Shown in pieces: positions 8,370 to 29,441 of a stretch of DNA of 64,000 bases (positions are counted from its first letter, which is position 1; every line of letters starts with the position of its first letter). Where the stretch lies: the NCBI GenBank assembly GCA_963819925.1, contig CAWFYG010000005.1:381849-445848 (forward strand), given 5' to 3'. Under the pieces are notes generated by a model. That model was not told the DNA's origin. It searched no databases and saw nothing but the letters and a program-made list of their open reading frames with translations. The stretch comes from an uncultured Chitinophagaceae bacterium. GTDB taxonomy: Bacteria > Bacteroidota > Bacteroidia > Chitinophagales > Chitinophagaceae. Position numbers and translations under genes: made by a program.

Positions 8370-8444
8370 GGGAGCATAGCTCAGTTGGTTTAGAGCATCT
8401 GCCTTACAAGCAGAGGGTCCGCGGTTCGAACCCGTGTGCTCCCA
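8370..8444 (+). tRNA. tRNA-Val (anticodon TAC)
   Basis: GGGAGCA/TGCTCCC acceptor stem, D arm GCTCAGTTGGTTTAGAGC, anticodon arm TCTGC-CTTACAA-GCAGA, T arm GCGGTTCGAACCCGT; CCA not fully encoded. Confidence 0.97.
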
Positions 8445-8453
8445 CAGAAGAGT

Positions 8454-8492
8454 AAAGGGTTTCAGACGATTAAAGTTTGAATCCCTTTTTTA
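8454..8492 (+). terminator. Terminator hairpin downstream of tRNA-Val
   Basis: AAAGGG-T-TTCAGAC / GTTTGAA-T-CCCTTT followed by a T-run. Confidence 0.6.
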
Positions 8493-9013
8493 TTTCCGAA
8501 ATATCTCAAAACGTTTTAATTAAAATCTGGTAAAAGTTCATATTGTTTTTTTTATAGAAAGACAAGCTGTATGATACCATTGGAATAACCTCATTTCCTC
8601 TAAATAAAATGTTCTGCGTTTCCGAATAGAAGCTCGAAGATATAAAGGCATATTGACGCTTTTTTATTTCCCTTTACAGCAAGATGCAATGCATTTGTCT
8701 AATTTTCATTCTTCATGTTTTAACATTTTCTTCATCCTTAGTTCATTGCTTTTGCAAATCTTTAAGAATTCACCGCTTAATTTCATCAAACTATTCGAAT
8801 CAAACTCTACATGTATTACAATATTGATTCAGGCACTTCGCCGAATGTAAGCCTGGAGCTTGCTGCTTAAGAGAGTTATCGTTTCATCGAACAAAAAAAA
8901 GAGTACAAGTAATAGCGCAAATGTTTGGGAGCGTGTACCCATTGTTGTAACTGTTGATGAATTCAGGTGACGGACTTGAGATCTTTTAATGTAAAAAATT
9001 AACTGGAAAACTA

Positions 9014-9970
9014 ATGCAAATGAATACCGCTCCCACGTTTTGGCAACGAATAGGCGTGCAGAATTGGTTTCTTAAAAAGGAAGTTGAATACGCTGAAACC
9101 GCAACCATCTCACCCGATATTGTTCACAAATATATCATCGAAAAATTCCAGGAATCTATCGCAGAACTTTCTTTTGCCGGAAGGATAATATTCTATCATG
9201 AATACATCATTTGTTTTAGCCCTCCCGACTACAACAAATTCATGGATAACAATAAAGGCATATTTGGATTCATCGTCCAGGAATCTGTAAAGTCGTTTTA
9301 CAGCATATTGCAAAAGCGCAAACAAAAGGGAGAAAAGATAACTGCTTCATCCAACAAATGGGTTTTTCGTTTTGTATCTCATCCGGATTATCAAAAAGGC
9401 GACAAAAGTTTCATTGGAAAACTCCTGCCAGGCAATTCAACAAAGAATCAAAAAGACGACAATCTTAGGGTCACTTTTATTCCAAGACAAACAGGTATAG
9501 CGCAGACCTTTGATATTGCGGATGAACTATTAAAAGATTTTACATTTTACAGTGACGGGTATTATGAAATTCCTTACCACCAAAACCTTGTTTTAGACGA
9601 CTCCTTATTTGGAACTGCTGCGCCATATTTTGCCAGGTTGGAAACAACACTTCCCGATAAGAAGTATGCTGGTAAAAAACTTGAGTATTTTATGAAAGAT
9701 GAGCAAATCACAGTTTCGGGAAGTGAAGCAACTTCTGAGCAGGCAGGCATTTTTGGAATTCCCTCCGAATGGGTGTCAACTCCTCATCTTTTAATCCGCT
9801 ACGAAAAAAGCACAGGCAATTTCTTTTTAAGTTCTTTCGGTGAGAAAACCATTATCAACGAAGTCGAAATAAAAAACAGCGATCGAAAGGAGCCCGTATG
9901 GACGGCACTTCCGCTAAATTCCAGGATTGTGTTGAACGGCATTGTAACTATAAACATATTCAAAACATGA
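9014..9970 (+). CDS. FhaA-like protein: DUF3662-like N-terminus plus degenerate C-terminal FHA domain
   Basis: AGRIIFYHEYIICFSPPDY resembles the DUF3662 GR...Y.V.LSP.DY pattern. The C-terminal beta-sandwich has WVSTPH, FFLSSFG...TIINEVEI and LPLNSRIVLNG. Confidence 0.6.
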   Translation: MQMNTAPTFWQRIGVQNWFLKKEVEYAETATISPDIVHKYIIEKFQESIAELSFAGRIIFYHEYIICFSPPDYNKFMDNNKGIFGFIVQESVKSFYSILQKRKQKGEKITASSNKWVFRFVSHPDYQKGDKSFIGKLLPGNSTKNQKDDNLRVTFIPRQTGIAQTFDIADELLKDFTFYSDGYYEIPYHQNLVLDDSLFGTAAPYFARLETTLPDKKYAGKKLEYFMKDEQITVSGSEATSEQAGIFGIPSEWVSTPHLLIRYEKSTGNFFLSSFGEKTIINEVEIKNSDRKEPVWTALPLNSRIVLNGIVTINIFKT

Positions 9971-10062
9971 TATGGACAAATTATTGGCAATAGCGTTATT
10001 AATAATCAGCATTATAATATTAATTGCGCACTTCTCAGAAATAAAACAAACCCACAACAGCA

Positions 10063-11451
10063 ATGGATGATTATTTCTTTGGGATAACGGACACGGGCAA
10101 ACGAAGGGAAAAAAACGAAGATACTTTTATTTCCTGCGAAGTTGTTAAAAATGAGCTCGCGGTTGCCTGTGTGATAGATGGAGTTGGCGGCTACAGTGGC
10201 GGAGATGTTGCTGCTGCAATCGCCAGGACCGTAATCCTTGAGCAACTGGATAATTTGACGGTGGATATATCAGCAACACTACAGACCGCTTTAGTCGCCG
10301 CCAATGCTAAAATACTGGAAGAAAAAAAGAAAGACCCTGTAAATGAGCAGATGGCCTGCGTGGTAACATGTGTAGTAACCGATGTAAAGAACAATAAACT
10401 CTACTATGCACATGTTGGAGACACAAGGCTTTATCTGCAAAGAGACCACTCCCTGGTAAAACTATCTAAAGATCATTCTGCAGTAGGATTTCTTGAAGAG
10501 TCAGGCCGCTTGTCGGAAGCAGATGCCATGCGTCATCCGCGGCGCAACGAGATTACCAAGGCCCTGGGCTTTGAGGAAAATATTAATGATATCGATGGCT
10601 TTATTGAAACAGGCGAATCCCCTTTCCTTCCGGGAGATGTTATCCTGGTGTGCAGCGATGGGCTGTCAGATATGGTTGATTCCAAAACTATGCTTGGTAT
10701 CCTTCTTAATAAAAACAGCCTTGGCAAAAAAGCCGAAGAACTGGTAGTTGCTGCCAATGACGCGGGGGGAAATGATAACATTACCGCGGTATTAGTACAA
10801 AATAATAATCAACCTATGCCGAAGGTCGTCTTAAAACCACCAGAAAAAAAACACGGTGTCGGAAAGAATCAACCTGATAAAAAATCCTCACCCGGAGAAT
10901 ACCGGGAGTTACCGGTTAGGCGTAAACGAGGATTGCTTGTATTGTTAACTCTCGTGCCTATTGGCCTTTTGGCGATGGTATTGTTTCAAAAAGCTACTCC
11001 AAAGAAAAATAATATTATTTTGAACCCGGTGACGGCAAAGCCAAAAAATGAAAAACAGGATCTTTTTATCCGTAGTGCCAAAGATTCCACAAAGACATAC
11101 CAATTTGCCCCGGCAGAAGCATTAGTACGTCTTTCCGAGCCGGTTCTGATCACTAAGGATAGTTTTTATATTAAAGGGAATGGCGCTACTATTACCTGCG
11201 ACTCGAATTACAGGGGTCCCGCCGTAATTATAAATAAAACGCCAAAAGCCATAGTATTGGACAGCATTGTATTTAAAAATTTTGATGTGGCCGTTGTTGT
11301 TCAAAAGAACAATGTGGTCTTTAAAAATGTGAGGTTTATAAATTGCCGTGTGCCGGTGCAGTACCTGTTATCATTTCCGGATACTGCTATATCGGGGCGC
11401 ATAAAAGATTCCATCTTCATCCATTTTAAACCTTTAAAAAGCCACAAATGA
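10063..11451 (+). CDS. PP2C/PPM family Ser/Thr phosphatase with TM helix and extracytoplasmic domain
   Basis: TDTGKRREKNED, VIDGVGG, HVGDTRLY, DHS, LVCSDGL, GGNDNITAV; TM GLLVLLTLVPIGLLAMVLF; beta-rich C-terminus. Confidence 0.93.
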   Translation: MDDYFFGITDTGKRREKNEDTFISCEVVKNELAVACVIDGVGGYSGGDVAAAIARTVILEQLDNLTVDISATLQTALVAANAKILEEKKKDPVNEQMACVVTCVVTDVKNNKLYYAHVGDTRLYLQRDHSLVKLSKDHSAVGFLEESGRLSEADAMRHPRRNEITKALGFEENINDIDGFIETGESPFLPGDVILVCSDGLSDMVDSKTMLGILLNKNSLGKKAEELVVAANDAGGNDNITAVLVQNNNQPMPKVVLKPPEKKHGVGKNQPDKKSSPGEYRELPVRRKRGLLVLLTLVPIGLLAMVLFQKATPKKNNIILNPVTAKPKNEKQDLFIRSAKDSTKTYQFAPAEALVRLSEPVLITKDSFYIKGNGATITCDSNYRGPAVIINKTPKAIVLDSIVFKNFDVAVVVQKNNVVFKNVRFINCRVPVQYLLSFPDTAISGRIKDSIFIHFKPLKSHK

Positions 11452-14400
11452 CATCTGAAAAAACATTGTTCAACTGCAGGAAATTGGAGCGCCTTGCATT
11501 GGTCCTTATCTCCGTAGTTATGGCTTTGCTTTTTCTAAAAATGTTTTCTGTATTGCAGCGGGACTTCGCCGAAGTAAATACCAGGATGGAGCATGGCACC
11601 ATGGTCAACCTCAATAATATTAATGATTCGGCTGGTATAAAAAGGCTTTTAACCAAGGGATTATATTTTGAAGATCAGAAAGATGTTGATTTTATTGCAT
11701 TAACCATTAAGGCTGCCAAAGATCCTACGAGAACTATCGATAATGTAGGGGAACTTAATAAGCAACGCTATTTTGTAAATGCAGATGAAGCATTTGCCAA
11801 AGGCGGCAAATCATTTAAAAGCCGCGTAGCCTTATCTAGAAGTCTGCTGGGCTTTTTCGGGCCGGACTCCATATCGTTTGAGAAGGAAAGGTTGCATCCG
11901 TTGCAGGTAACTTCGCAGACCAACGTCGGTCTTGGCGTATACAATATTTCAGGTGCTATCACCAATCACCAGGATCAGCCCATTGCACGAGCCCTTGTAA
12001 GACTAAGGTCGTTGGCTTCGCCTGATAGCAATATGACCGCTGACCAGGGGGGAGATTCAAAAGAAATCATTCAATTTAATAACGGCGTAAGAAAAATATT
12101 CATTTTAGATTCGGCTAAACAAAGGCAACTGGTTTCGTTTTATGCCTATGCGCGCACAGACGCATCAGGAAAGTTTATTTTTTCAGGACTGCCCGAACAT
12201 AGGGCTTATGAACTGCTTCCATTGCAACCGGGTTACGAGTTCGGTCCGGTAAAGGGTACGCAAAATCTGAAGAGTAATACCAGCTTTAGTTTTGTTCAGT
12301 CACCACATACACTGAGGCTTTTTTCTTCAAAGGACTTCAGCACGCTAAAAAAAGAAAAGGCATTCATCGTAAGAATGCCGGAAGAAGTGAGCAGTTGGTA
12401 TTGGACGATCGTGGGTGTGTTTTTCTTTTCTTTCCTATTGCTCCATATCATTTTTACTATTCGTTCCCCTGGTGCAGATCAGTTGCTGTTACCCATCATC
12501 ATGATCCTCACCGGGCTTTCATTCCTCACTTTGTTTAGCTTGCAGGATCCGTTACGCGATCGCTTCCTGGCGAAAAGTTCCTTCATTTATTTTTCTATAG
12601 GAATTGCAGGTATCATAATTCTACAGTTTATCAATCTTAAAAAGTTTACGGCAGATTCCGGTTTATTTCGGATGTTCATTTTTAAGAACAACCGGAGCGC
12701 TGCTAACGGTTGGCCATGGGCGCTAGGAGCATTAGGACTGTTATTATTGACCATTTTTTTCGGTAGCGGCCCACAGGGAAGCGGCGTTAAAGTAAATCTT
12801 TTCGGTTTTCAGCCGAGTGAATTGGTAAAATACCTTTTGATCATATTCCTTGCTGCATTCTTCTCCAGGAATGAAAATTTTATTTCCCAATATCTATCCT
12901 GGAATAAAAGGCTGCGTTTTTTCATAATGGCGCTAGGTGCCATTGTTGCAGCAATATTACTATTCTTCGTGCTCGGTGATCTTGGTCCTGGCATAGTTTG
13001 TTGTTTCACGTTCATAGTACTTTTTTCTTTTTCACGAGGAGATTTTATGCAGGTGGTTGCAGCTATGGTATTGTATGCAGTAAGTATTTGGCTACTTAAA
13101 AACGTTTGGCTTGCCACGGGTATAACGGTAGGGCTACTCGCACTTTACATGTTATTTGCCAAAAGAAAATTGAGCGAATCTACTGTGATGGCGCTTGTAG
13201 TTGTAAGCGGATTTTTATTGCTTGACCAGGTTCATGTGCTAGCGAAAATTATTCCCGGCCCAATGCAACGTCTTGTTGAAAGAAAAGCAATCTGGTCAGA
13301 TCCATGGAACAACCAGGTATTTGGCGGAGATCAGATAGCCAACGGTATCTGGGCCATTTCTACCGGTGGCATCACTGGCCAGGGTGCTGGCGAAGGATTT
13401 GCAAAAACGATTCCCGAAGCGCATACCGACATGATCCTTCCTGCAATAGGTGAAGAATTTGGCTGGGCAGGAATCACCTGTATTTTTATTTTGTTCCTCA
13501 TTTACCTGCACCGTTCAGTTATCATTGGCAGGCAAACAGGCACACCATTTTTATTTTATTTATGTGCAGGTATTGGCATCGGGACGTTCGTGCAGTTCTT
13601 GCTGATCGCAGGCGGGTCCACCGGGGCGCTCCCCCTTTCGGGCGTAGCGTTGCCCTTCACCAGCTATGGGGGCACCTCCTTATTGTGCAGCATGATCGCG
13701 GCAGGCGTGCTTTTATCTGCATCACGACTCAATGGCTCCAAAGTTCAGATGAAATACATGATGCAGCGACAGGATAAAAATTTAATGCCGGCTTTACTTT
13801 CGGCTTGCATGGCCATTGTACTGCTGGTGATCAATGTATCTTCTTATTCCTTTCATAATAAAAAATGGATCGTAGAACCTGCCCTGGTGGCTGATCGTAG
13901 CGGGGGAAGGCTGTTCAGCTATAATCCAAGAATAAATATTTTGATGAACAGGCTGCAGGCGGGAAATATATTTGACCGGAACGGAAACATATTGGCAACC
14001 AGTGACCCAAAACTAGTGCAAAAAGAAAAAGATTCTCTCTCATCATACGGAATACCCGTTGCCGATATCGCCTCATTATCTTATAAAAGAGCAGACCGTT
14101 ATTATCCTTTTGGCGAACAGATGTTCTTCTGGACCGGTGATGCAAACACACATATTTTCGATGGCGGCAACAATGGTTATTTTGCTGAGTACGCTCATGC
14201 ATCGGAACTCCGCGGCTTTCCTGCCCCGCTGGTAAAATACCAGGTGGGCGCAAGTTCTTACCGACCCGAAAAATTTTTGCCGGCAACGGAAACTCAAATG
14301 ACCATATCGAAAAGAGATTATAGTGCGCTTGCTAATCTGCTCCTCGCAGGTATCAATAGTAATGAAGTGGAGCAATTCAAAAAACGCAATCGTGATGTCA

Positions 14401-15596
14401 CGCTCACCATGGATGTAGCCCTTCAAACTAAAATTCAACTTTCGTTGCAGCATGATGACAGCGTAAGAAGAAAACGAGTATCCGTCGTAGTTATGGAAGA
14501 TAATACTGGTGAAGTAATTGCATCTGCTATGTGGCCCTTGCCTCCGGTTAATGATTGGGATCGGATGAATTTAAGTGACGCCGAATTAAACGATTTACCC
14601 GGATGGAATGTAAACAGTGATATTGGTTTTACGCACGCAACGCAGCCAGGTTCAACGGCAAAGTTGATTACAGCGCTGGCAGCATTTAATAAACTTGGAA
14701 ATGCTGCTGCCAAAAAAATAATCCGTGTATATCCTCAGGATCTTATTCGTACTAACGGTCCCGAACCTGATGAAGCCGGCCTTATCAATATTGAGCGGGC
14801 TATTGTAAAATCCAATAACTCTTTTTTTATCCGGCTGGCAAACGAAGCTCATTTGCAGGAGGAGATGGCTACTTTATATATGCAGTCCGGAATGTTTCTC
14901 CGTGGTGTGGGTGGATATTATTTTGAGAACGAAAATAGCAATACTGACCAGCAGGAAAAATGGCGCGAGCTGTGGCGAAACACTGAATTCAAAAGCATTC
15001 TCCGATATGACCCCAACAACATCAGGCGAACCCGGGCCCTTGGAATTTCCGGCATGGCATGGGGACAGGGAGAATTAGTATCAACACCCGCATCTGTAGC
15101 AAGAATTGCATCGGCAATTGCCAACAATGGCATAATGGTTCCTAACCAGTACGTGCTTAATATAAACGGGAAACCGGCAAAAAGTAAACCAGGCTTTTCT
15201 ATTGTGAATGATTCTCTCTATGCGCAGCTACTTGAACGCTACATGAAGGAACAGAGCGCTACCAAAAAGGACAGGCTCGGCATTTATGTCGCTGGTAAAA
15301 CGGGCACTCCTGAAAGAATTTATAAAGGAGAAAGCATCAACGATGGCTGGTATGTATTTTTCGCACCAAAAGCTGAAGGCGAAGGACACATTGTAGTTTG
15401 TATAAGAATTGAAGGAACGAGGGGATCTAGCGACGCGGTGCAACTGGCAGGGAGAACCATTATTCCATTGCTATTGGAGCGTAATTATATAAAAAGCTTT
15501 GAGGCGCGGCCTCCGCTAAAGTCAATTCATGATAACAATCAGCCTGTCCAGAAGGTTGCGGACGAACTGGCAAAGAAAATTGATCGTGATCATTGA
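11448..15596 (+). CDS. Fused SEDS (RodA/FtsW) glycosyltransferase + class B penicillin-binding transpeptidase
   Basis: SEDS motifs FQPSE, GDLG, IPEAHTD (Asp661), GEEFG, LPFTSYGG; then a TM anchor, GNIFDRNG, LTMDVALQ; PBP motifs STAK (Ser1069), SNN (1122), KTG (1284); one uninterrupted ORF; ATGA overlap with the phosphatase stop. Confidence 0.93.
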   Translation: MTSEKTLFNCRKLERLALVLISVVMALLFLKMFSVLQRDFAEVNTRMEHGTMVNLNNINDSAGIKRLLTKGLYFEDQKDVDFIALTIKAAKDPTRTIDNVGELNKQRYFVNADEAFAKGGKSFKSRVALSRSLLGFFGPDSISFEKERLHPLQVTSQTNVGLGVYNISGAITNHQDQPIARALVRLRSLASPDSNMTADQGGDSKEIIQFNNGVRKIFILDSAKQRQLVSFYAYARTDASGKFIFSGLPEHRAYELLPLQPGYEFGPVKGTQNLKSNTSFSFVQSPHTLRLFSSKDFSTLKKEKAFIVRMPEEVSSWYWTIVGVFFFSFLLLHIIFTIRSPGADQLLLPIIMILTGLSFLTLFSLQDPLRDRFLAKSSFIYFSIGIAGIIILQFINLKKFTADSGLFRMFIFKNNRSAANGWPWALGALGLLLLTIFFGSGPQGSGVKVNLFGFQPSELVKYLLIIFLAAFFSRNENFISQYLSWNKRLRFFIMALGAIVAAILLFFVLGDLGPGIVCCFTFIVLFSFSRGDFMQVVAAMVLYAVSIWLLKNVWLATGITVGLLALYMLFAKRKLSESTVMALVVVSGFLLLDQVHVLAKIIPGPMQRLVERKAIWSDPWNNQVFGGDQIANGIWAISTGGITGQGAGEGFAKTIPEAHTDMILPAIGEEFGWAGITCIFILFLIYLHRSVIIGRQTGTPFLFYLCAGIGIGTFVQFLLIAGGSTGALPLSGVALPFTSYGGTSLLCSMIAAGVLLSASRLNGSKVQMKYMMQRQDKNLMPALLSACMAIVLLVINVSSYSFHNKKWIVEPALVADRSGGRLFSYNPRINILMNRLQAGNIFDRNGNILATSDPKLVQKEKDSLSSYGIPVADIASLSYKRADRYYPFGEQMFFWTGDANTHIFDGGNNGYFAEYAHASELRGFPAPLVKYQVGASSYRPEKFLPATETQMTISKRDYSALANLLLAGINSNEVEQFKKRNRDVTLTMDVALQTKIQLSLQHDDSVRRKRVSVVVMEDNTGEVIASAMWPLPPVNDWDRMNLSDAELNDLPGWNVNSDIGFTHATQPGSTAKLITALAAFNKLGNAAAKKIIRVYPQDLIRTNGPEPDEAGLINIERAIVKSNNSFFIRLANEAHLQEEMATLYMQSGMFLRGVGGYYFENENSNTDQQEKWRELWRNTEFKSILRYDPNNIRRTRALGISGMAWGQGELVSTPASVARIASAIANNGIMVPNQYVLNINGKPAKSKPGFSIVNDSLYAQLLERYMKEQSATKKDRLGIYVAGKTGTPERIYKGESINDGWYVFFAPKAEGEGHIVVCIRIEGTRGSSDAVQLAGRTIIPLLLERNYIKSFEARPPLKSIHDNNQPVQKVADELAKKIDRDH

Positions 15597-15669
15597 GAGA
15601 ACATAGCAGCAGGCAAAAGAGTATGAGTGCGTGAAATAAACAAAACAGATTATAAAAATAAATAAGCCA

Positions 15670-16446
15670 ATGTTCAAACTATTTAAAGATCCCGGAGTAG
15701 ACGTAAAAAAGATCCGTCACACATTGTTGCAATTCATCAAAGAGAAATTACAGAAAGCTGAAGGAGGCGAAGGCGCTGATATAAATGGCATACATCTTTA
15801 TATCAATTGCGATAGCCCCGAACGGTATTTATATGAGTCTGCGGTGTATGCTTCAAGCCCCGGAAAATTTAGAGACGAAATTCAAAAAGTTGCCGATGAT
15901 TATGCGATACTTCTAAGATCGTCGTGGCAATGCGAAGTAGCTTTCACTAATATCTTTCCGGAACACTCTTACCTGGCACCCGAGGTAAATACAGCTCTCT
16001 TTATTTCAACAGGAAAAGCAAGTACGGCTGTTAAAAGATCGCCGGCTTTTATCCGCATATTAAGCGGCACTGCCGAGAAGGAATTGTATGTACTTAACCC
16101 ATCGAAAGAAAAAATAAATATTGGCCGTGAAGCTCAGGCGCAACTGAGCGGTGGCTTTGTGCGGAAGAATGTGATTGCATTTACTGCAGTAGGGTCAATG
16201 GATATTAACCGTTCCGTAAGTAGACAACATGCTCACATTGAATGGGAGCCATCGAGTGGAGCATTTTTAGTCTTTGCAGATGAAGGCGGCATACCGCCAC
16301 ACAATAAAATGAAAATACGTACCGCAGAAGGAAGTTCAATAAAAATGCACGCGATTGAGGTAGGCCATCGCTTGCAGGAAGGTGACCAGGTGATACTGGG
16401 CGACAATGCGGTGCTTGAATTTACTTATTCAGGATTGGACAATTAG
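15670..16446 (+). CDS. FHA domain protein
   Basis: INIGRE, SVSRQHAHI, HRLQEGDQVILG: canonical FHA GR and SxxH motifs after a roughly 120-aa N-terminal domain. Confidence 0.85.
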   Translation: MFKLFKDPGVDVKKIRHTLLQFIKEKLQKAEGGEGADINGIHLYINCDSPERYLYESAVYASSPGKFRDEIQKVADDYAILLRSSWQCEVAFTNIFPEHSYLAPEVNTALFISTGKASTAVKRSPAFIRILSGTAEKELYVLNPSKEKINIGREAQAQLSGGFVRKNVIAFTAVGSMDINRSVSRQHAHIEWEPSSGAFLVFADEGGIPPHNKMKIRTAEGSSIKMHAIEVGHRLQEGDQVILGDNAVLEFTYSGLDN

Positions 16447-16447
16447 T

Positions 16448-18076
16448 ATGGCAAAAGTATTTACGATAACGGAAGGATTAGAAAACCTGGGTGCATTAAA
16501 ATCCGGCGGCCAGGGATCAGTATATAAAGCACGGCGACATGGTGAAATCATTACCGCCATCAAAATATTGCCAACGCCAATTTACAGTGAAACGGATGAG
16601 GATAAAAATTTTTCTTCTTTTCAAAACGAGGTACAAAAATTAAAAAAGGTAAACGAAACATCGAACCCGAATGTCGTCAGCATCGTTGCTTCCGGTATTA
16701 CCACCTCTGGTAATTTTCCATACATTGAAATGGAATATATTGAAGGCACGGACCTCGGTGAATTGCTGAAATCTCCCTGCGACCCGGTTTTTACTATTAA
16801 GGAAACAATTAAGTTGGCTGACCATTTATCCAATGCATTGGCCCATTGCCACCGGGCAGATATAAAGCATGGCGATATTAAAAGCAATAATGTAAAATTC
16901 AATAAGCGTACGGGTAATTATATGCTGCTCGACTTTGGATTATCCATTATGTCGGACGAGCAACGCCGAACCAGTATACGCCATGCCGGCGCGATAGAAT
17001 TTATGGCGCCGGAGCAAAACATGGGTGTAATGTATTTTGAAACAGACATCTATAGTTTTGGAATCATACTCTTTGAGTTGTTGGCAGGTATCGTACCCTT
17101 TCCATTAAATAACCAGGGAGAGATGGGGCGTAATTCGGTGATGCTCGCCCATATGGAATCCAGCCCACCCGACCTGCTATCACTTCGCAGGCAGGCAATT
17201 CCTTCACATTGGAGCCATGAAAAGAAAGAACATGAAATGCAGGTGCCTTCCTGGCTCATCAAAATGGTTTACCGGTGCCTGGAGAAGGAACCTGAGAAGC
17301 GGTTTAGAAATGGAACGGAACTACAGGAGTTTATTCATTCGGGACTTATTGCTGAGGAAACAAAGGCTGCTAATAACTCAACTGAGCAACTAACAGTCGT
17401 CCGCACACAGGAGTTACAGCTAAAGAAATATATCCAAAAATTGGAATTGCTGGCAGCAGAAAAGGACAGCCTGATAGAAGACCTACGAATGCAGGTTGAA
17501 TCGAAAGACAAGGCTCTCGAACAATACCAGTATTCGGATTACTATGCACTGACACCCAAAAAAACGGGGATTTCAAAAAGCCTGTTTATTATGGTGCTGT
17601 TAATTGCCCTTGGCCTCGGTGGGTTTACTACTTATGATTCATTTCTCCGGCCGGTTAATAATAATCTTTCAGATTCTTCGCTCGCAAAGGTGCAACCGCC
17701 GGTTAATCACGTAGATTCTTCTTCGACCGCTAACCATCAACCGCAGAAAAAACCCAGGTACAGATCCACCAAAAACACTGCCTTGCCTGCAAGCAGCACA
17801 GACAAAAAAGAGCCGGAGCAATCGAATAGTGATTTTGAAAACACTTCCTATAAAAGTCCTTCGGCCCGGCAACAGTATAAGGTGATTAACAATGCCTATT
17901 TTTATGTAACTCCCGACATTAAGACCAGGCGCAATGTTTACATTATTCCCGGCGAAGAACCTGTAACATCGCTCAATGAGAAGAACGGGTTTGTTTTTGT
18001 TTCATTTATCGACGCAGAGGGAAAAACCACGAAAGGTTGGATCTTAAAAAAAGATCTCAGAGCGGTGGATGACTAA
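16448..18076 (+). CDS. Membrane Hanks-type Ser/Thr protein kinase with C-terminal SH3b-like domain
   Basis: SGGQGSVY, AIK, HGDIKSNN, DFG, MAPE, DIYSFG; coiled coil; TM LFIMVLLIALGLGGF; C-terminal YKVINNAYFY...GFVFVSF...KGWILKKDL. ATG 16448 lies 1 nt after the FHA stop. Confidence 0.93.
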   Translation: MAKVFTITEGLENLGALKSGGQGSVYKARRHGEIITAIKILPTPIYSETDEDKNFSSFQNEVQKLKKVNETSNPNVVSIVASGITTSGNFPYIEMEYIEGTDLGELLKSPCDPVFTIKETIKLADHLSNALAHCHRADIKHGDIKSNNVKFNKRTGNYMLLDFGLSIMSDEQRRTSIRHAGAIEFMAPEQNMGVMYFETDIYSFGIILFELLAGIVPFPLNNQGEMGRNSVMLAHMESSPPDLLSLRRQAIPSHWSHEKKEHEMQVPSWLIKMVYRCLEKEPEKRFRNGTELQEFIHSGLIAEETKAANNSTEQLTVVRTQELQLKKYIQKLELLAAEKDSLIEDLRMQVESKDKALEQYQYSDYYALTPKKTGISKSLFIMVLLIALGLGGFTTYDSFLRPVNNNLSDSSLAKVQPPVNHVDSSSTANHQPQKKPRYRSTKNTALPASSTDKKEPEQSNSDFENTSYKSPSARQQYKVINNAYFYVTPDIKTRRNVYIIPGEEPVTSLNEKNGFVFVSFIDAEGKTTKGWILKKDLRAVDD

Positions 18077-18232: not shown

Positions 18233-18625
18233 TTACCTATGCATCCTTTTGTAAAGAGACCCAATGATAAAAACCTGTATCAGCACCATTATTAATGCAC
18301 TGGTGAGTATATAAGAAATTTCCGCAGGAATGGCGATGCTGAAATGAGGGATCTTAATACTATTTGCAATCTTGTTTAAGTAAGGAATCTTTGTTGCCTG
18401 TAATTGATAACCACTTGCAAAGGTAAACAGGATAATAAAGCACAGGAACGAAATTACTCCAACTAAAATACGTTTTGGTATCAAAGGTTTGTACACACTA
18501 GCTTTACGACTTGTTTCCATAATGGCACCCATCACATTTTCTGTAAAATCATTTGGAGGAGTATCCAGTCCTTCTTCACAAACTATGTTTTTTATAAGGT
18601 CATCTATTTTGTGCTTGTGTTCCAT
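18233..18625 (-). CDS. Putative membrane anti-sigma factor
   Basis: Directly downstream of the ECF sigma; PPNDFTENVM motif then two hydrophobic helices. Confidence 0.65.
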   Translation of the reverse strand: MEHKHKIDDLIKNIVCEEGLDTPPNDFTENVMGAIMETSRKASVYKPLIPKRILVGVISFLCFIILFTFASGYQLQATKIPYLNKIANSIKIPHFSIAIPAEISYILTSALIMVLIQVFIIGSLYKRMHR

Positions 18626-18628
18626 ACT

Positions 18629-19204
18629 TTACAAATTTAAGATAGAAATTATTTCATTTTTCGATTGTAACATTTCCATCAACTTTGAACGGATGCGATA
18701 CAGTTTTATCTTAACATTATTCTCTTTAATTCCCATTATTTCGGCAATGTCCCTCAGCGGAAGTTCCTCATAATAATACAGCGCAACGATCACCTGGTCG
18801 TCCGGCGAAAGCCGGTGAATTGTATCTTTCATCAATACCCTGATCTCTTTAAGATCAATCTTTTCATCAAGAGAATGGGTTTCTGTTTCACTTTGTTCGG
18901 TATCGCCTTCAGTGATTTCCTTATACCATTTGCCTTTATTCTTTTTTACAGTATCCACGGCGTGATTGTAGGCAATTCTGTATAACCACGTGGCAAATGC
19001 GGCCTGGTTATTATAGCTTCTCAAAGATCGGTAGCACTTGAGAAAAATCTCCTGGGCTGCATCTTCGGCTTCCTCTCTATTGCCGGTTATTTTTAGCGCA
19101 AGGGTATACACCATGTTCTGATACTTTTCTACCAGGAACTTAAAAGCCCCCGTATCGCCGTCCAATATGCGATTGATGTAGATAGTATCGGTATTATTTT
19201 TCAA
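18629..19204 (-). CDS. ECF RNA polymerase sigma factor
   Basis: Region 2 (AEDAAQEIFLK, FATWLYRIAYN) and region 4 (LYYYEELPLRDIAEIMGIKENNVKIKLYR); TTG start. Confidence 0.93.
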   Translation of the reverse strand: MKNNTDTIYINRILDGDTGAFKFLVEKYQNMVYTLALKITGNREEAEDAAQEIFLKCYRSLRSYNNQAAFATWLYRIAYNHAVDTVKKNKGKWYKEITEGDTEQSETETHSLDEKIDLKEIRVLMKDTIHRLSPDDQVIVALYYYEELPLRDIAEIMGIKENNVKIKLYRIRSKLMEMLQSKNEIISILNL

Positions 19205-19332: not shown

Positions 19333-19680
19333 ATGGACACAGTTATCTTTAATGTTTTAATAGTTTTTGGAACCCTTTTCGGAATTATTTATGTTGCTAT
19401 TTCTTCAAGAACAAGAGTAAGGCTGGCACTCATTGAAAAGGGGGCCGAAGCTTCCATCTTTAATTCCAAATCTGCCTCAAAATCGAACGTATTCTCCATT
19501 ATATTGGTTAATATTTCGCTGTTGCTTGTATCCATCGGTATCGGAATTTTTCTTGCGGCCATATTGCATCAATCGTTTAATGTAGAAGAGTCGGTGGCTT
19601 ACCCGGGAACGATCTTCACTGTGGCAGGAATAGGTCTTTTCGTCGGATATTTAGTGTCATCAAAAATTGGAAACGAATAG
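19333..19680 (+). CDS. DUF6249-like small membrane protein
   Basis: TM, then RxRLALIEKGAEASIF, then SIGIGIFLA and a further TM; divergent from the ECF sigma, a common Bacteroidota layout. Confidence 0.7.
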   Translation: MDTVIFNVLIVFGTLFGIIYVAISSRTRVRLALIEKGAEASIFNSKSASKSNVFSIILVNISLLLVSIGIGIFLAAILHQSFNVEESVAYPGTIFTVAGIGLFVGYLVSSKIGNE

Positions 19681-27719: not shown

Positions 27720-29441
27720 TTAAAACAAAAAATACCGTTGTGCTAAAGAAACTTCACTCAAAGGTTCACAGGTAATGTGTACTCCATCTACTTTTACTTC
27801 GTAGGTTTCAGGATTTACATCTATCTGTGGTGTTTTGTTATTATGGATCAGATCTTTTTTTCCGATGTTCCTGCAATTCTTCACAGGTAATATTTCCTTT
27901 TGTAATTTATAAGCCAGCACGTTTCCATTGTCTATAGAAATTTGCGATACAAAAGTTAAACAGGTATTATGCAATGCTTTACCGTAGGCGCCAAACATGT
28001 GGCGATAAATTACAGGCTGCGGTGTAGGTATAGATGCGTTAGGATCACCCATCCTGCTTGCTATAATCATTCCGCCTTTAATGATCATTTCCGGCTTAGC
28101 CCCGAATAGTGATGGTTTCCAGAGAACAAGGTCAGCAAGTTTGCCAACTTCTACGGATCCTACATAGTCGGATATTCCATGGGTAATTGCGGGATTGATG
28201 GTATATTTTGTAACATATCTCTTCACCCTGAAATTATCGTTTTGATTTTTTTCATCCTCCGGTAAGAAGCCTCTTTGCTTTTTCATTTTGTCGGCAGTTT
28301 GCCAAGTGCGTGTTATTACTTCCGCAACACGTCCCATTGCCTGGCTGTCAGAACTCATCATACTAAAAACACCCATATCATGCAAAATATCTTCCGCAGC
28401 GATTGTTTCGGGACGAATACGGCTATCAGCAAAAGCAACGTCTTCCGGAACCGATTTATCCAAATGATGGCAGACCATGAGCATATCCAAATGTTCATCA
28501 ATTGTATTGACTGTGTAAGGCCTCGTTGGATTGGTTGACGACGGCAGAATGTTTGGATACATAGCTGCCTTTATTATATCCGGGGCATGACCACCGCCTG
28601 CACCTTCGGTATGATAGGTATGGATCGTTCTTCCTTTAATAGCATTGATGGTGTCTTCCAAAAATCCTGCTTCATTTAAAGTATCTGTATGAATGGCCAC
28701 CTGTACATCCAACGCATCCGCAACCTGCAGGGAAGCATCAATAACGGCGGGTGTTGAACCCCAGTCTTCATGTATTTTCAATCCTATTGCCCCGGCTTCA
28801 ACCTGTTCGACAAGTGGCCCGGTTGTTCCGCAATTTCCTTTACCCAGGAAACCAAGGTTCATCGGAAATGCATCTGCACTTTCCAGCATTTTTTGAATAT
28901 TCCACGCACCGGGAGTTACTGTTGTAGCATTGGTCCCATCGGCGGGACCTGTGCCGCCACCTAACATAGTAGTAATTCCACTAAACAAAGCATGATCAAT
29001 TAATTGAGGGCATATAAAATGAATATGTGAATCTATGCCACCGGCAGTAACTATCAGGCCCGCGCCACCATGCACTTCCGTAGAGGCACCAATAATCATA
29101 TTTGCGTCTACACCATCCGTTATGTCTGGATTGCCCGCTTTACCAATACCAATTATTTTTCCGTCTTTAATGCCGATGTCAGCTTTTACAATTCCCCAAT
29201 GATCTATTATTAAGGCGCTGGTGATTAAAAAATCGAGTACACCTTCACTTCTTTTTTTTCTCGATGACTGTGCCATGCCGTCACGTATGGTTTTGCCACC
29301 GCCGAATTTGTTTTCTTCACCATAAATTGTATGATCCTTTTCCACTTCAATGATAAGATCTGTGTCGCCCAGTCTTACCTTATCACCAACAGTAGGTCCA
29401 TACATATTCGCATATTTTGTCCTGTTGACATGAAGGCTCAT
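27720..29441 (-). CDS. ureC: Urease subunit alpha
   Basis: [51 protein letters not shown]. Confidence 0.99.

Follow-up and report, generated by a model that had tools for sequence, protein, structure and literature searches.

A conserved SEDS-transpeptidase fusion module with kinase, phosphatase, and FHA genes in Bacteroidota: a candidate accessory peptidoglycan synthase under phosphorylation control

Control of peptidoglycan synthesis by phosphorylation and FHA proteins has a precedent in Mycobacteriales, and fhaA-fhaB-pstP-rodA-pbpA-pknA-pknB is an operon of the Mycobacteriales and Actinobacteria (Rv0020c-Rv0014c in Mycobacterium tuberculosis) (PMC11898655, PMC6554272). Linkage of pstP, rodA, pbpA, and a PASTA kinase is found in all Actinobacteria and in part of the Firmicutes (PMC11898655, PMC6554272). 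Within the Bacteroidota, a 2025 survey describes a "rare" chimera of 1341 amino acids (aa) from Pedobacter ginsengisoli, with "two GTase domains in tandem" (GTase, glycosyltransferase) and with kinase and phosphatase genes on its flanks; its authors call the chimera a novel phenomenon to be investigated (PMC12516126). In this study, we analyzed a stretch of 64,000 nucleotides (nt) from an uncultured Chitinophagaceae bacterium (contig CAWFYG010000005.1, positions 381,849 to 445,848), which is referred to here as the window. Its positions 9014-18076 carry a cluster of six genes: gene 1 and gene 4, whose products are predicted FHA-type proteins; a mini-ORF (a very small open reading frame, ORF) for a transmembrane (TM) peptide; a membrane PP2C phosphatase; a Hanks-type Ser/Thr kinase; and a fusion of a SEDS glycosyltransferase with a class-B penicillin-binding protein (bPBP). 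Judging from sequence comparisons, we think it moderately probable that these genes form a self-contained, operon-like module in which an accessory peptidoglycan synthase is under the control of reversible Thr phosphorylation.

The closest described system is the actinobacterial operon, in which the same functions (FHA protein, membrane PP2C, SEDS protein, class-B PBP, and Hanks-type kinase) are also gathered in one co-oriented cluster. M. tuberculosis FhaA and genes 1 and 4 follow a common plan of globular N-domain, linker, and C-terminal FHA domain, and the tandem kinases of the actinobacterial operon can also be found in one class of the loci described below (type B). However, the actinobacterial rodA and pbpA are separate genes, whereas here they are joined in one ORF that also encodes a periplasmic N-domain and two extra TM helices. 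The actinobacterial kinase has PASTA repeats (PMC6554272); the kinase of the window has none and is non-RD, with Gly in place of Arg. The linker of FhaA is disordered and ~300 aa long (PMC11898655), compared with ~80 residues in gene 1 and ~10 in gene 4. Neither a pedestal in the fusion nor similarity to the FhaA N-domain in genes 1 and 4 was detectable. In addition, the module has a conserved mini-TM gene and a diderm host, and it is apparently accessory and sometimes duplicated. A PstP-like membrane PP2C with an outside domain is present in the window but absent from the type A copies of Cytophagales. With regard to its components, the module thus resembles the actinobacterial operon, but it does not belong to that family. 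A first-pass annotation of this DNA, made by a model from the letters alone, had called the cluster actinobacterial-style; this description suits the parts, and it fails for the PASTA repeats, the fused synthase, and the kinase type, and for the pedestal and the FhaA N-domain, neither of which was detectable.

The Pedobacter chimera very probably belongs to the same family as the fusion of the window. As the survey describes it, the chimera likewise combines SEDS and transpeptidase parts, has no pedestal, lies next to kinase and phosphatase genes, and occurs together with canonical synthases, namely FtsI/FtsW and MrdA/RodA (PMC12516126). Its "two GTase domains" are plausibly one split SEDS domain, because Pfam splits the SEDS domain of the window in the same way, while the TIGR02210 model aligns unbroken, with residues 344-759 on model positions 1-353. 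From this uninterrupted alignment we infer a single SEDS domain in our fusion, and the published tandem domains (Fig. 7C of PMC12516126) are probably one SEDS domain in two Pfam stretches. The survey's account of the chimera concerns a single case and mentions neither FHA genes nor a mini-ORF, whereas here a large family and a six-gene module are seen. The first-pass annotation knew of no functional description in this phylum. The locus type had in fact been reported in 2025 (PMC12516126), although our literature search found no functional study of such a module in Bacteroidota. What is new here is how widespread the locus type is, together with the FHA pair and the mini-protein; the locus type as such was already known from one Pedobacter case.

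Two further groups of systems are comparable. The canonical pairs RodA-PBP2, FtsW-FtsI, and SpoVE-SpoVD have SEDS catalytic residues and SxxK, SxN, and KTG motifs in common with the fusion, whose order of SEDS domain, TM anchor, and periplasmic transpeptidase matches the 1:1 complex of these pairs. In the canonical pairs, however, the partners are separate proteins and the pedestal couples the bPBP to SEDS; in the fusion, the connection is covalent, a pedestal was not detected, and an extra periplasmic domain is found at the N-terminus. The Firmicutes pairs PrkC-PrpC, StkP-PhpP, and Stk1-Stp1 are, as here, bitopic-kinase systems linked to the cell wall, and Stk1 (4EQM) and Stp1 (besides tPphA and PstP) are the closest solved relatives of the catalytic domains found here. 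Unlike these pairs, the module has no PASTA domains, its phosphatase is membrane-anchored with an outside domain, and both enzymes are tied genetically to a dedicated synthase and FHA proteins.

All five ORFs listed by the first-pass annotation were confirmed at their coordinates on the + strand, as were two tight junctions that it had pointed out: the ATGA at 11448-11451, which is shared by the phosphatase stop and the fusion start, and the 1-nt spacing between the gene 4 stop at 16446 and the kinase ATG at 16448. Scans with hidden Markov models (HMMs) from Pfam and NCBIfam also bore out its calls of a PP2C, a SEDS plus transpeptidase fusion, and a Pkinase domain. Its count of five genes was incomplete, since a conserved sixth gene, the TM mini-ORF at 9972-10070, had been overlooked; this gene begins 1 nt past the stop of gene 1, and its last 8 nt overlap the start of the phosphatase gene. 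An alternative kinase start at the upstream ATG 16406 was rejected. It is not conserved in the closest complete relative, a Ferruginibacter metagenome-assembled genome (MAG; locus L001), where conservation starts at MAK(I/V)FTITEG, and the window kinase begins at this conserved start with MAKVFTITEG. In a promoter/terminator scan, terminator-like sites occurred in the module at chance-level frequency and in none of the + strand gaps. A pattern search found no Bacteroidota -33/-7 promoter upstream of gene 1, and an Rfam scan of the gene cluster gave no match. Two metatranscriptome contigs match the inside of the fusion gene at 100% identity (13360-13510 and 15192-15397). Overall, the module looks operon-like, and a single transcript is contradicted by nothing tested, including the overlaps, the close spacing, and the terminator scan.

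Loci from other organisms were collected by searching species-representative genomes with one narrow peptide pattern, which yielded 266 loci; the best 80 were analyzed. According to their record titles, ~52 of these belong to Cytophagales (Spirosoma, Fibrella, Larkinella, Fibrisoma, Emticicia, and others), 24 to Chitinophagales (Niastella, Niabella, Paraflavitalea, and others), 2 to Bacteroidales, and 2 to unclassified Bacteroidota. Co-occurrence was determined with family HMMs on all ORFs of the 60 loci that had enough flank, counting only genes on the same strand. All four partners were found beside the fusion in 55 of the 60 loci; individually, the kinase was present in 58, and gene 1, PP2C, and gene 4 in 57 each. 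Two gene orders occur. Type A, that of the window, runs gene 1, mini-ORF, PP2C, fusion, gene 4, kinase, and type B runs gene 1, mini-ORF, PP2C, one or two kinases, fusion, gene 4. The median gap between neighbors is 2-28 nt, apart from the interval of gene 1 and PP2C, which holds the mini-ORF and has a median of 121 nt. The fusion and gene 4 form the tightest pair: gene 4 directly follows the fusion in 78 locus pairs (median gap 20.5 nt), and the two remain in loci L013 and L039, which have no kinase, phosphatase, or gene 1 within 10 kb. Between the fusion and gene 4 of L039, there are insertions of TonB-receptor-like and other genes.

Flanks vary even among close relatives, and apart from synteny within genera (at most 10 of 81 loci), the module has no further recurrent neighbors. 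This indicates that the module is discrete and self-contained, as the first-pass annotation had claimed; it had also suggested looking for homologous genes that do not stay together, and the outcome was the opposite. Linkage to mreBCD or dcw genes was seen in none of the 81 loci. Three MAGs have one type A and one type B module each (L002 and L043, L003 and L078, L006 and L075), the kinases being RD in one copy and non-RD in the other, which points to duplication and divergence within genomes.

The fusion matches both Pfam FTSW_RODA_SPOVE (PF01098, 5e-45) and Transpeptidase (PF00905, 2.5e-22) in one chain. In comparisons with the NCBIfam equivalog models, its SEDS domain reached 155 bits for FtsW and 140 bits for RodA, with cut-offs of ~337; it stays under every cut-off and is not an equivalog of FtsW, RodA, or SpoVE. 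Residue conservation was assessed in 40 diverse fusions that are 26-59% identical to the window protein. Among the catalytic residues of the SEDS domain (QPSE..K and HTD), D661 is invariant and E458 and K461 are conserved at 90% or more; in the transpeptidase, the motifs S1069xxK1072, S1122xN1124, and K1284-x-G1286 are invariant, and position T1285 is Ser or Thr in 100% of 56 fusions. With this conservation, both halves, SEDS and transpeptidase, look functional and appear to be catalytically intact. Hydropathy places two TM helices ahead of the SEDS domain, enclosing an N-domain of ~280 aa. SEDS proteins begin in the cytoplasm, as RodA structures show; therefore, the bracketed N-domain is predicted to be periplasmic and the 17-residue N-tail cytoplasmic. 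In a profile comparison with the PDB, the N-domain matched the Ig-like/CarboxypepD_reg beta-sandwich of NOMO2 (E 4e-5) and also a cell-wall anchor protein, and its first ~120 residues matched nothing. In the ~210 residues before the transpeptidase, the Pfam pedestal family PBP_dimer (PF03717) gave just E 0.033 over 18 aa, which agrees with the wording "lacking the pedestal" in the survey's description of the Pedobacter chimera (PMC12516126).

A search with the SEDS-PBP part of the fusion (residues 331-1382) retrieved 364 cluster representatives at E<=1e-30. Full-length fusions of 1200-1770 aa make up most of the top 150, and the cluster names of the most divergent representatives give Bacteroidota alone or no taxon. 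One locus (L008, 9050-14917) has a 1955-aa ORF that joins PP2C, SEDS-PBP, and the gene 4 FHA protein, and was considered as a natural "Rosetta-stone" fusion. This reading was dropped in favor of a probable long-read indel artifact, because there is no TM helix between the periplasmic transpeptidase and the FHA part, and the locus of the sister MAG (L005) is frameshifted. The joining of PP2C in the L008 ORF fits a cytoplasmic N-terminus of the fusion.

Gene 4 is a canonical FHA protein according to family and structural models. Alone, its sequence matches Pfam FHA at E 0.0044, under the Pfam cut-off, and the FHA call of the first-pass annotation was substantiated by family and structure: 23 of 26 diverse family members match Pfam FHA. 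In the family, G152, R153, S184, and R185 are invariant, H187 is conserved at 90% or more, and G238-D239 is conserved. The AlphaFold model of gene 4 has a confidence score (predicted local distance difference test, pLDDT) of 80, and the linker between its domains is ~10 residues long. Foldseek searches with this model gave 41 PDB matches at E<=1e-3, every one of them an FHA domain, including that of M. tuberculosis FhaA (3POA). The N-terminal domain of gene 4 has no family match. Homologs of gene 4 are also found in Sphingobacteriaceae and Daejeonella.

Gene 1 is more divergent. Its 1710 homologs are all annotated as "hypothetical" without a Pfam domain, and its single sequence matched nothing in Pfam and NCBIfam. 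In a diverse family alignment, however, 16 of 25 members match Pfam FHA (best 2.5e-5), the family profile retrieves exclusively FHA domains from the PDB, and hhalign relates the families of gene 1 and gene 4 with a probability of 93.5% (E 2e-7). The AlphaFold model of gene 1 is of low confidence (pLDDT 48, from a shallow alignment) and offers weak support, although it still retrieves mainly FHA folds. Taken together, these Pfam, PDB-profile, hhalign, and fold matches identify gene 1 at the level of sequence profiles as a distant paralog of gene 4 with an FHA-type C-terminus and the same plan of N-domain plus FHA; its N-terminal alpha/beta domain has no family match. A low-confidence region of ~80 residues in gene 1 serves as the linker. 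It contains T154 and T160, which are Ser or Thr in 25 of 25 diverse members and Thr in 21. The first-pass annotation had described gene 1 as FhaA-like, which is right as far as the FHA-type fold is concerned; a likeness to the FhaA N-domain did not emerge. Only FHA recurred in Pfam for whole-protein queries and alignments of genes 1 and 4 at E<=1 to 10, the M. tuberculosis FhaA (TB39.8) entries aligned exclusively to the FHA region in PDB profile searches with both genes, and the whole gene 4 model gave FHA-domain matches alone in Foldseek.

The mini-ORF is present at the same position in 60 of the 64 loci that have gene 1 and PP2C, and encodes a TM helix with a short tail. The peptides are 22-34 aa long across the family; in type B, the commoner subtype, the mini-ORF has a fixed length of 27 codons and the consensus end R-H-F-K/Q-x-L-P-R. 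Over 25 loci from many genera, the proportion of synonymous differences (pS) is 0.78, near saturation, and that of nonsynonymous differences (pN) is 0.33, falling to 0.19 in the tail; M1, H21, F22, L25, and P26 are invariant. The pattern is that of a real, conserved micro-protein gene under purifying selection, and it is likely that gene callers have overlooked it too. The mini-ORF starts 1-8 nt from the gene 1 stop, and this proximity is compatible with translational coupling.

The catalytic domain of the phosphatase is, by homology, an ordinary bacterial PP2C. It matches Pfam PP2C_2 (2e-16) and PP2C (1e-13) and, over positions 2-232 of 232, NCBIfam Stp1/IreP (9e-59, 198.7 bits); in the PDB, it matches tPphA (1e-31), Stp1 (1e-25), and PstP (5e-25). 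The kinase is closest to Staphylococcus aureus Stk1 (4EQM, 7e-22) among PDB entries, and NF033483 covers its kinase part alone (model positions 15-357 of 563). Its outside region has no Pfam match to PASTA or any other known domain. The motifs AIK (with the beta3 Lys), HGDIKSNN, DFG, and APE are retained, so the kinase should be active. All 87 type B kinases are RD kinases (HRD), and all type A kinases are non-RD. Outside domains had been proposed for both enzymes by the first-pass annotation. This is true of the window, where each has one TM helix and ~150 aa beyond it; however, the type A PP2C copies of Cytophagales have 257-286 aa and no TM helix, and thus the outside domain of the phosphatase is not universal. 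Guesses made by eye for the outside domains and the spacer (beta-helix, SH3b) were discarded after Pfam gave nothing significant.

Some relatives have unusual kinase genes. In L001 (15130-16810), the kinase is split into overlapping ORFs of 370 aa and 211 aa, owing to either a frameshift or an assembly error. In the Niabella-type modules L077 (15047-16438 and 6269-7795) and, likewise, L079, the downstream kinase is cytosolic, and that of L077 has its own C-terminal FHA domain (Pfam 5.5e-6). The kinases of L077 and L079 have no catalytic-loop Lys (HNDINPKN), and a second, TM-anchored kinase lies upstream of gene 1. The coordinates of all features are given in Table 1.

Table 1. Genes of the module in the window and predicted domains of their products
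Feature	Positions in window	Strand	Residues	Description
Gene 1	9014-9970	+	318 aa	Cytoplasmic two-domain protein with divergent FHA-type C-terminus
Mini-ORF	9972-10070	+	32 aa	MDKLLAIALLIISIIILIAHFSEIKQTHNSNG; one TM helix and short polar tail
Membrane PP2C Ser/Thr phosphatase	10063-11451	+	462 aa	Pfam, NCBIfam
PP2C catalytic domain	10063-10812		~1-250
PP2C TM helix	10930-10986		290-308	Hydropathy
PP2C outside C-terminal domain	10987-11448		309-462	154 aa, no family match
SEDS and class-B PBP fusion	11448-15596	+	1382 aa	Pfam, NCBIfam
Fusion N-tail			1-17	Cytoplasmic
Fusion TM helix			18-36	Hydropathy
Fusion periplasmic N-domain	11556-12392		37-315	Contains CarboxypepD_reg/NOMO-type beta-sandwich
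Fusion extra TM helix			320-338	Hydropathy
Fusion SEDS glycosyltransferase domain	12477-13727		344-760	Single domain
Fusion TM anchor			779-797	Hydropathy; precedes transpeptidase
Fusion spacer			800-1010	Pedestal-less
Fusion transpeptidase	14481-15407		1012-1320
Gene 4	15670-16446	+	258 aa	Cytoplasmic; N-terminal alpha/beta domain and FHA
Gene 4 N-terminal alpha/beta domain			~12-114	Order alpha-beta-alpha-alpha-beta-beta-beta
Gene 4 FHA domain	16045-16425		~126-252	Canonical
Bitopic Hanks-type Ser/Thr kinase	16448-18076	+	542 aa	Non-RD; Pkinase
Kinase catalytic domain	16448-17347		~1-300	Pkinase 5.8e-34
Kinase juxtamembrane segment				Coiled; between catalytic domain and TM helix
Kinase TM helix	17570-17626		375-393	Hydropathy
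Kinase outside C-terminal region	17627-18073		394-542	~150 aa

A scheme can be proposed for how these components act together, although its specific wiring is considerably less certain than the module itself. The bitopic kinase would sense an envelope cue through its non-PASTA outside domain and phosphorylate cytoplasmic Thr residues, for which T154 and T160 of gene 1 and the juxtamembrane region of the kinase itself are the best candidates. The canonical FHA domain of gene 4 would then dock on the phospho-Thr, and gene 4 may recruit, activate, or restrain the synthase via its N-domain. Gene 1 would be both substrate and scaffold, with an FHA pocket that is degenerate in the window, the mini-peptide may be an intramembrane subunit, and the membrane PP2C would reset the system. 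A role of gene 1 as kinase substrate and scaffold, with gene 4 as the synthase-bound reader, is the most economical assignment because conserved Ser/Thr residues are found in the linker of gene 1 and none is universal in the synthase.

Several observations weigh against control of the synthase by phosphorylation. No universally conserved Ser/Thr was found in the short cytoplasmic segments of the fusion (N-tail and SEDS-PBP linker); this gives no indication that the effector is phosphorylated directly, and what connects signalling to the synthase is the adjacency of the genes. The window has a non-RD kinase, and some of its type A relatives lack the catalytic-loop Lys as well, so the output of the kinase may be atypical. 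The outside domains of both the phosphatase and the kinase match no known Pfam family, and the RNA evidence consists of the two tiny metatranscriptome contigs. Moreover, IARKE of type B corresponds to VSGSE in gene 1 of the window: the phosphate-binding Arg is replaced, while Ser, His, and Asn are kept, and the protein may not read phospho-Thr. The first-pass annotation had listed a writer, an eraser, two readers, and an effector; the list of components stands, but the second reader is doubtful for this reason.

A different question is whether the fusion is the main synthase of elongation or division, replacing RodA/PBP2 or FtsW/FtsI, with the kinase, phosphatase, and FHA genes tuning growth. 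The actinobacterial counterpart does belong to the core growth machinery (PMC11898655, PMC6554272), and the invariant catalytic motifs of the fusion are in keeping with such a housekeeping role. Nevertheless, we regard it as improbable. Three MAGs have two paralogous modules each, the SEDS scores of 155 and 140 bits are to be read against cut-offs of ~337 for FtsW and RodA, a pedestal domain is not detectable in the fusion, mreBCD or dcw genes are linked in none of the 81 loci, and P. ginsengisoli retains both canonical pairs next to its chimera (PMC12516126). Because of the duplicated modules, the low SEDS scores, the absent mreBCD/dcw linkage, and the canonical pairs of P. ginsengisoli, an accessory role, which the first-pass annotation had also put forward, is favored over a housekeeping one. 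Instead of replacing the canonical Rod complex and divisome, the module probably operates in parallel with them. Roles in envelope stress, beta-lactam bypass, polar growth, or dormancy, which the first-pass annotation had offered, are speculative.

Module carriers include the Spirosomataceae and Chitinophagaceae, families with filamentous, coiled, or pleomorphic members. The fusion might thus be a differentiation-specific synthase that, like SpoVE/SpoVD, makes special peptidoglycan during filamentation or coiling or in a resting form, with the kinase as developmental trigger. We consider this rather unlikely, even though the module is apparently accessory, duplicated, and unevenly distributed, and the survey also draws the SpoVE/SpoVD analogy (PMC12516126). 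No developmental regulators were found in the flanks of the module, and the idea refines the proposal of a phosphorylation-controlled accessory synthase without offering a separate mechanism. Far less probable still is that the signalling genes serve another process and lie beside the synthase incidentally, or that the kinase is an anti-phage defense kinase. Trios of FHA, PP2C, and kinase do regulate other machinery, type VI secretion systems among them, and the kinase domain matches the PADLOC models PD-T4-6 (3e-44) and mad6 as well as NCBIfam MADS6. However, the PADLOC matches are limited to the kinase and PP2C domains and reflect generic homology, with no match for gene 1, the fusion, or gene 4; neither type VI secretion nor defense genes recur nearby; and although the flanks vary, 55 of the 60 loci, from different orders, keep the genes adjacent. 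The defense reading was therefore rejected, given matches limited to generic homology and a linkage to the synthase that is too consistent.

The surroundings of the module in the window were also inspected. A tRNA-Val gene (8370-8445) is followed by a non-coding leader of ~570 nt before gene 1 (8370-9013 in all); the leader has no Rfam match and no recognizable promoter consensus. Downstream (18233-19204, -, and 19333-19680, +), genes for an extracytoplasmic function (ECF) sigma factor and an adjacent 130-aa membrane protein, possibly an anti-sigma factor, are convergent with the kinase gene. A DUF6249 protein is encoded beyond this pair, and these genes are not kept beside the module in other genomes. 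Farther away, Rfam 5_ureB_sRNA (RF02514) matches at 28991-29289 (+) with 83.7 bits, antisense within the urease alpha-subunit gene (27720-29441, -); this match probably reflects the conservation of urease coding sequence. Homologs of the window proteins carry the names Ferruginibacter and Ginsengibacter (Chitinophagaceae), and the window sequence was matched in soil metagenomes.

In sum, SEDS-bPBP synthases are targets of antibiotics, and the way in which their activity is turned on and off is a central open question of cell-wall biology. Their control by phosphorylation is, to our knowledge, understood in detail only for PASTA-kinase systems of Gram-positive bacteria and Actinobacteria. Here, a synthase, kinase, phosphatase, reader, and micro-protein are found in one compact and widespread cassette of Gram-negative Bacteroidota. 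Natural variants are available in the type A and B orders, with one or two kinases, RD or non-RD kinases, a phosphatase with or without a sensor domain, and lone synthase-FHA pairs, which makes the regulation testable by genetics and biochemistry. For structural studies, the cassette provides a SEDS-transpeptidase that is naturally fused and pedestal-less, and it adds a small, conserved membrane protein that is new. It is possible, if short of probable, that the module represents a third dedicated peptidoglycan machine of the Bacteroidota and the first SEDS-bPBP gated by a Hanks-type kinase and FHA proteins in diderms: a pedestal-less fusion that would be switched on or positioned by the phospho-Thr-dependent assembly of two scaffolds with new N-domains and a conserved membrane micro-protein of 27-32 aa, for a specialized task (shape change, resting-cell wall, or envelope repair) and not for routine growth, and that would have arisen separately from the actinobacterial operon. 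If its transpeptidase has low affinity for beta-lactams, the module could bear on intrinsic tolerance in environmental Bacteroidota.

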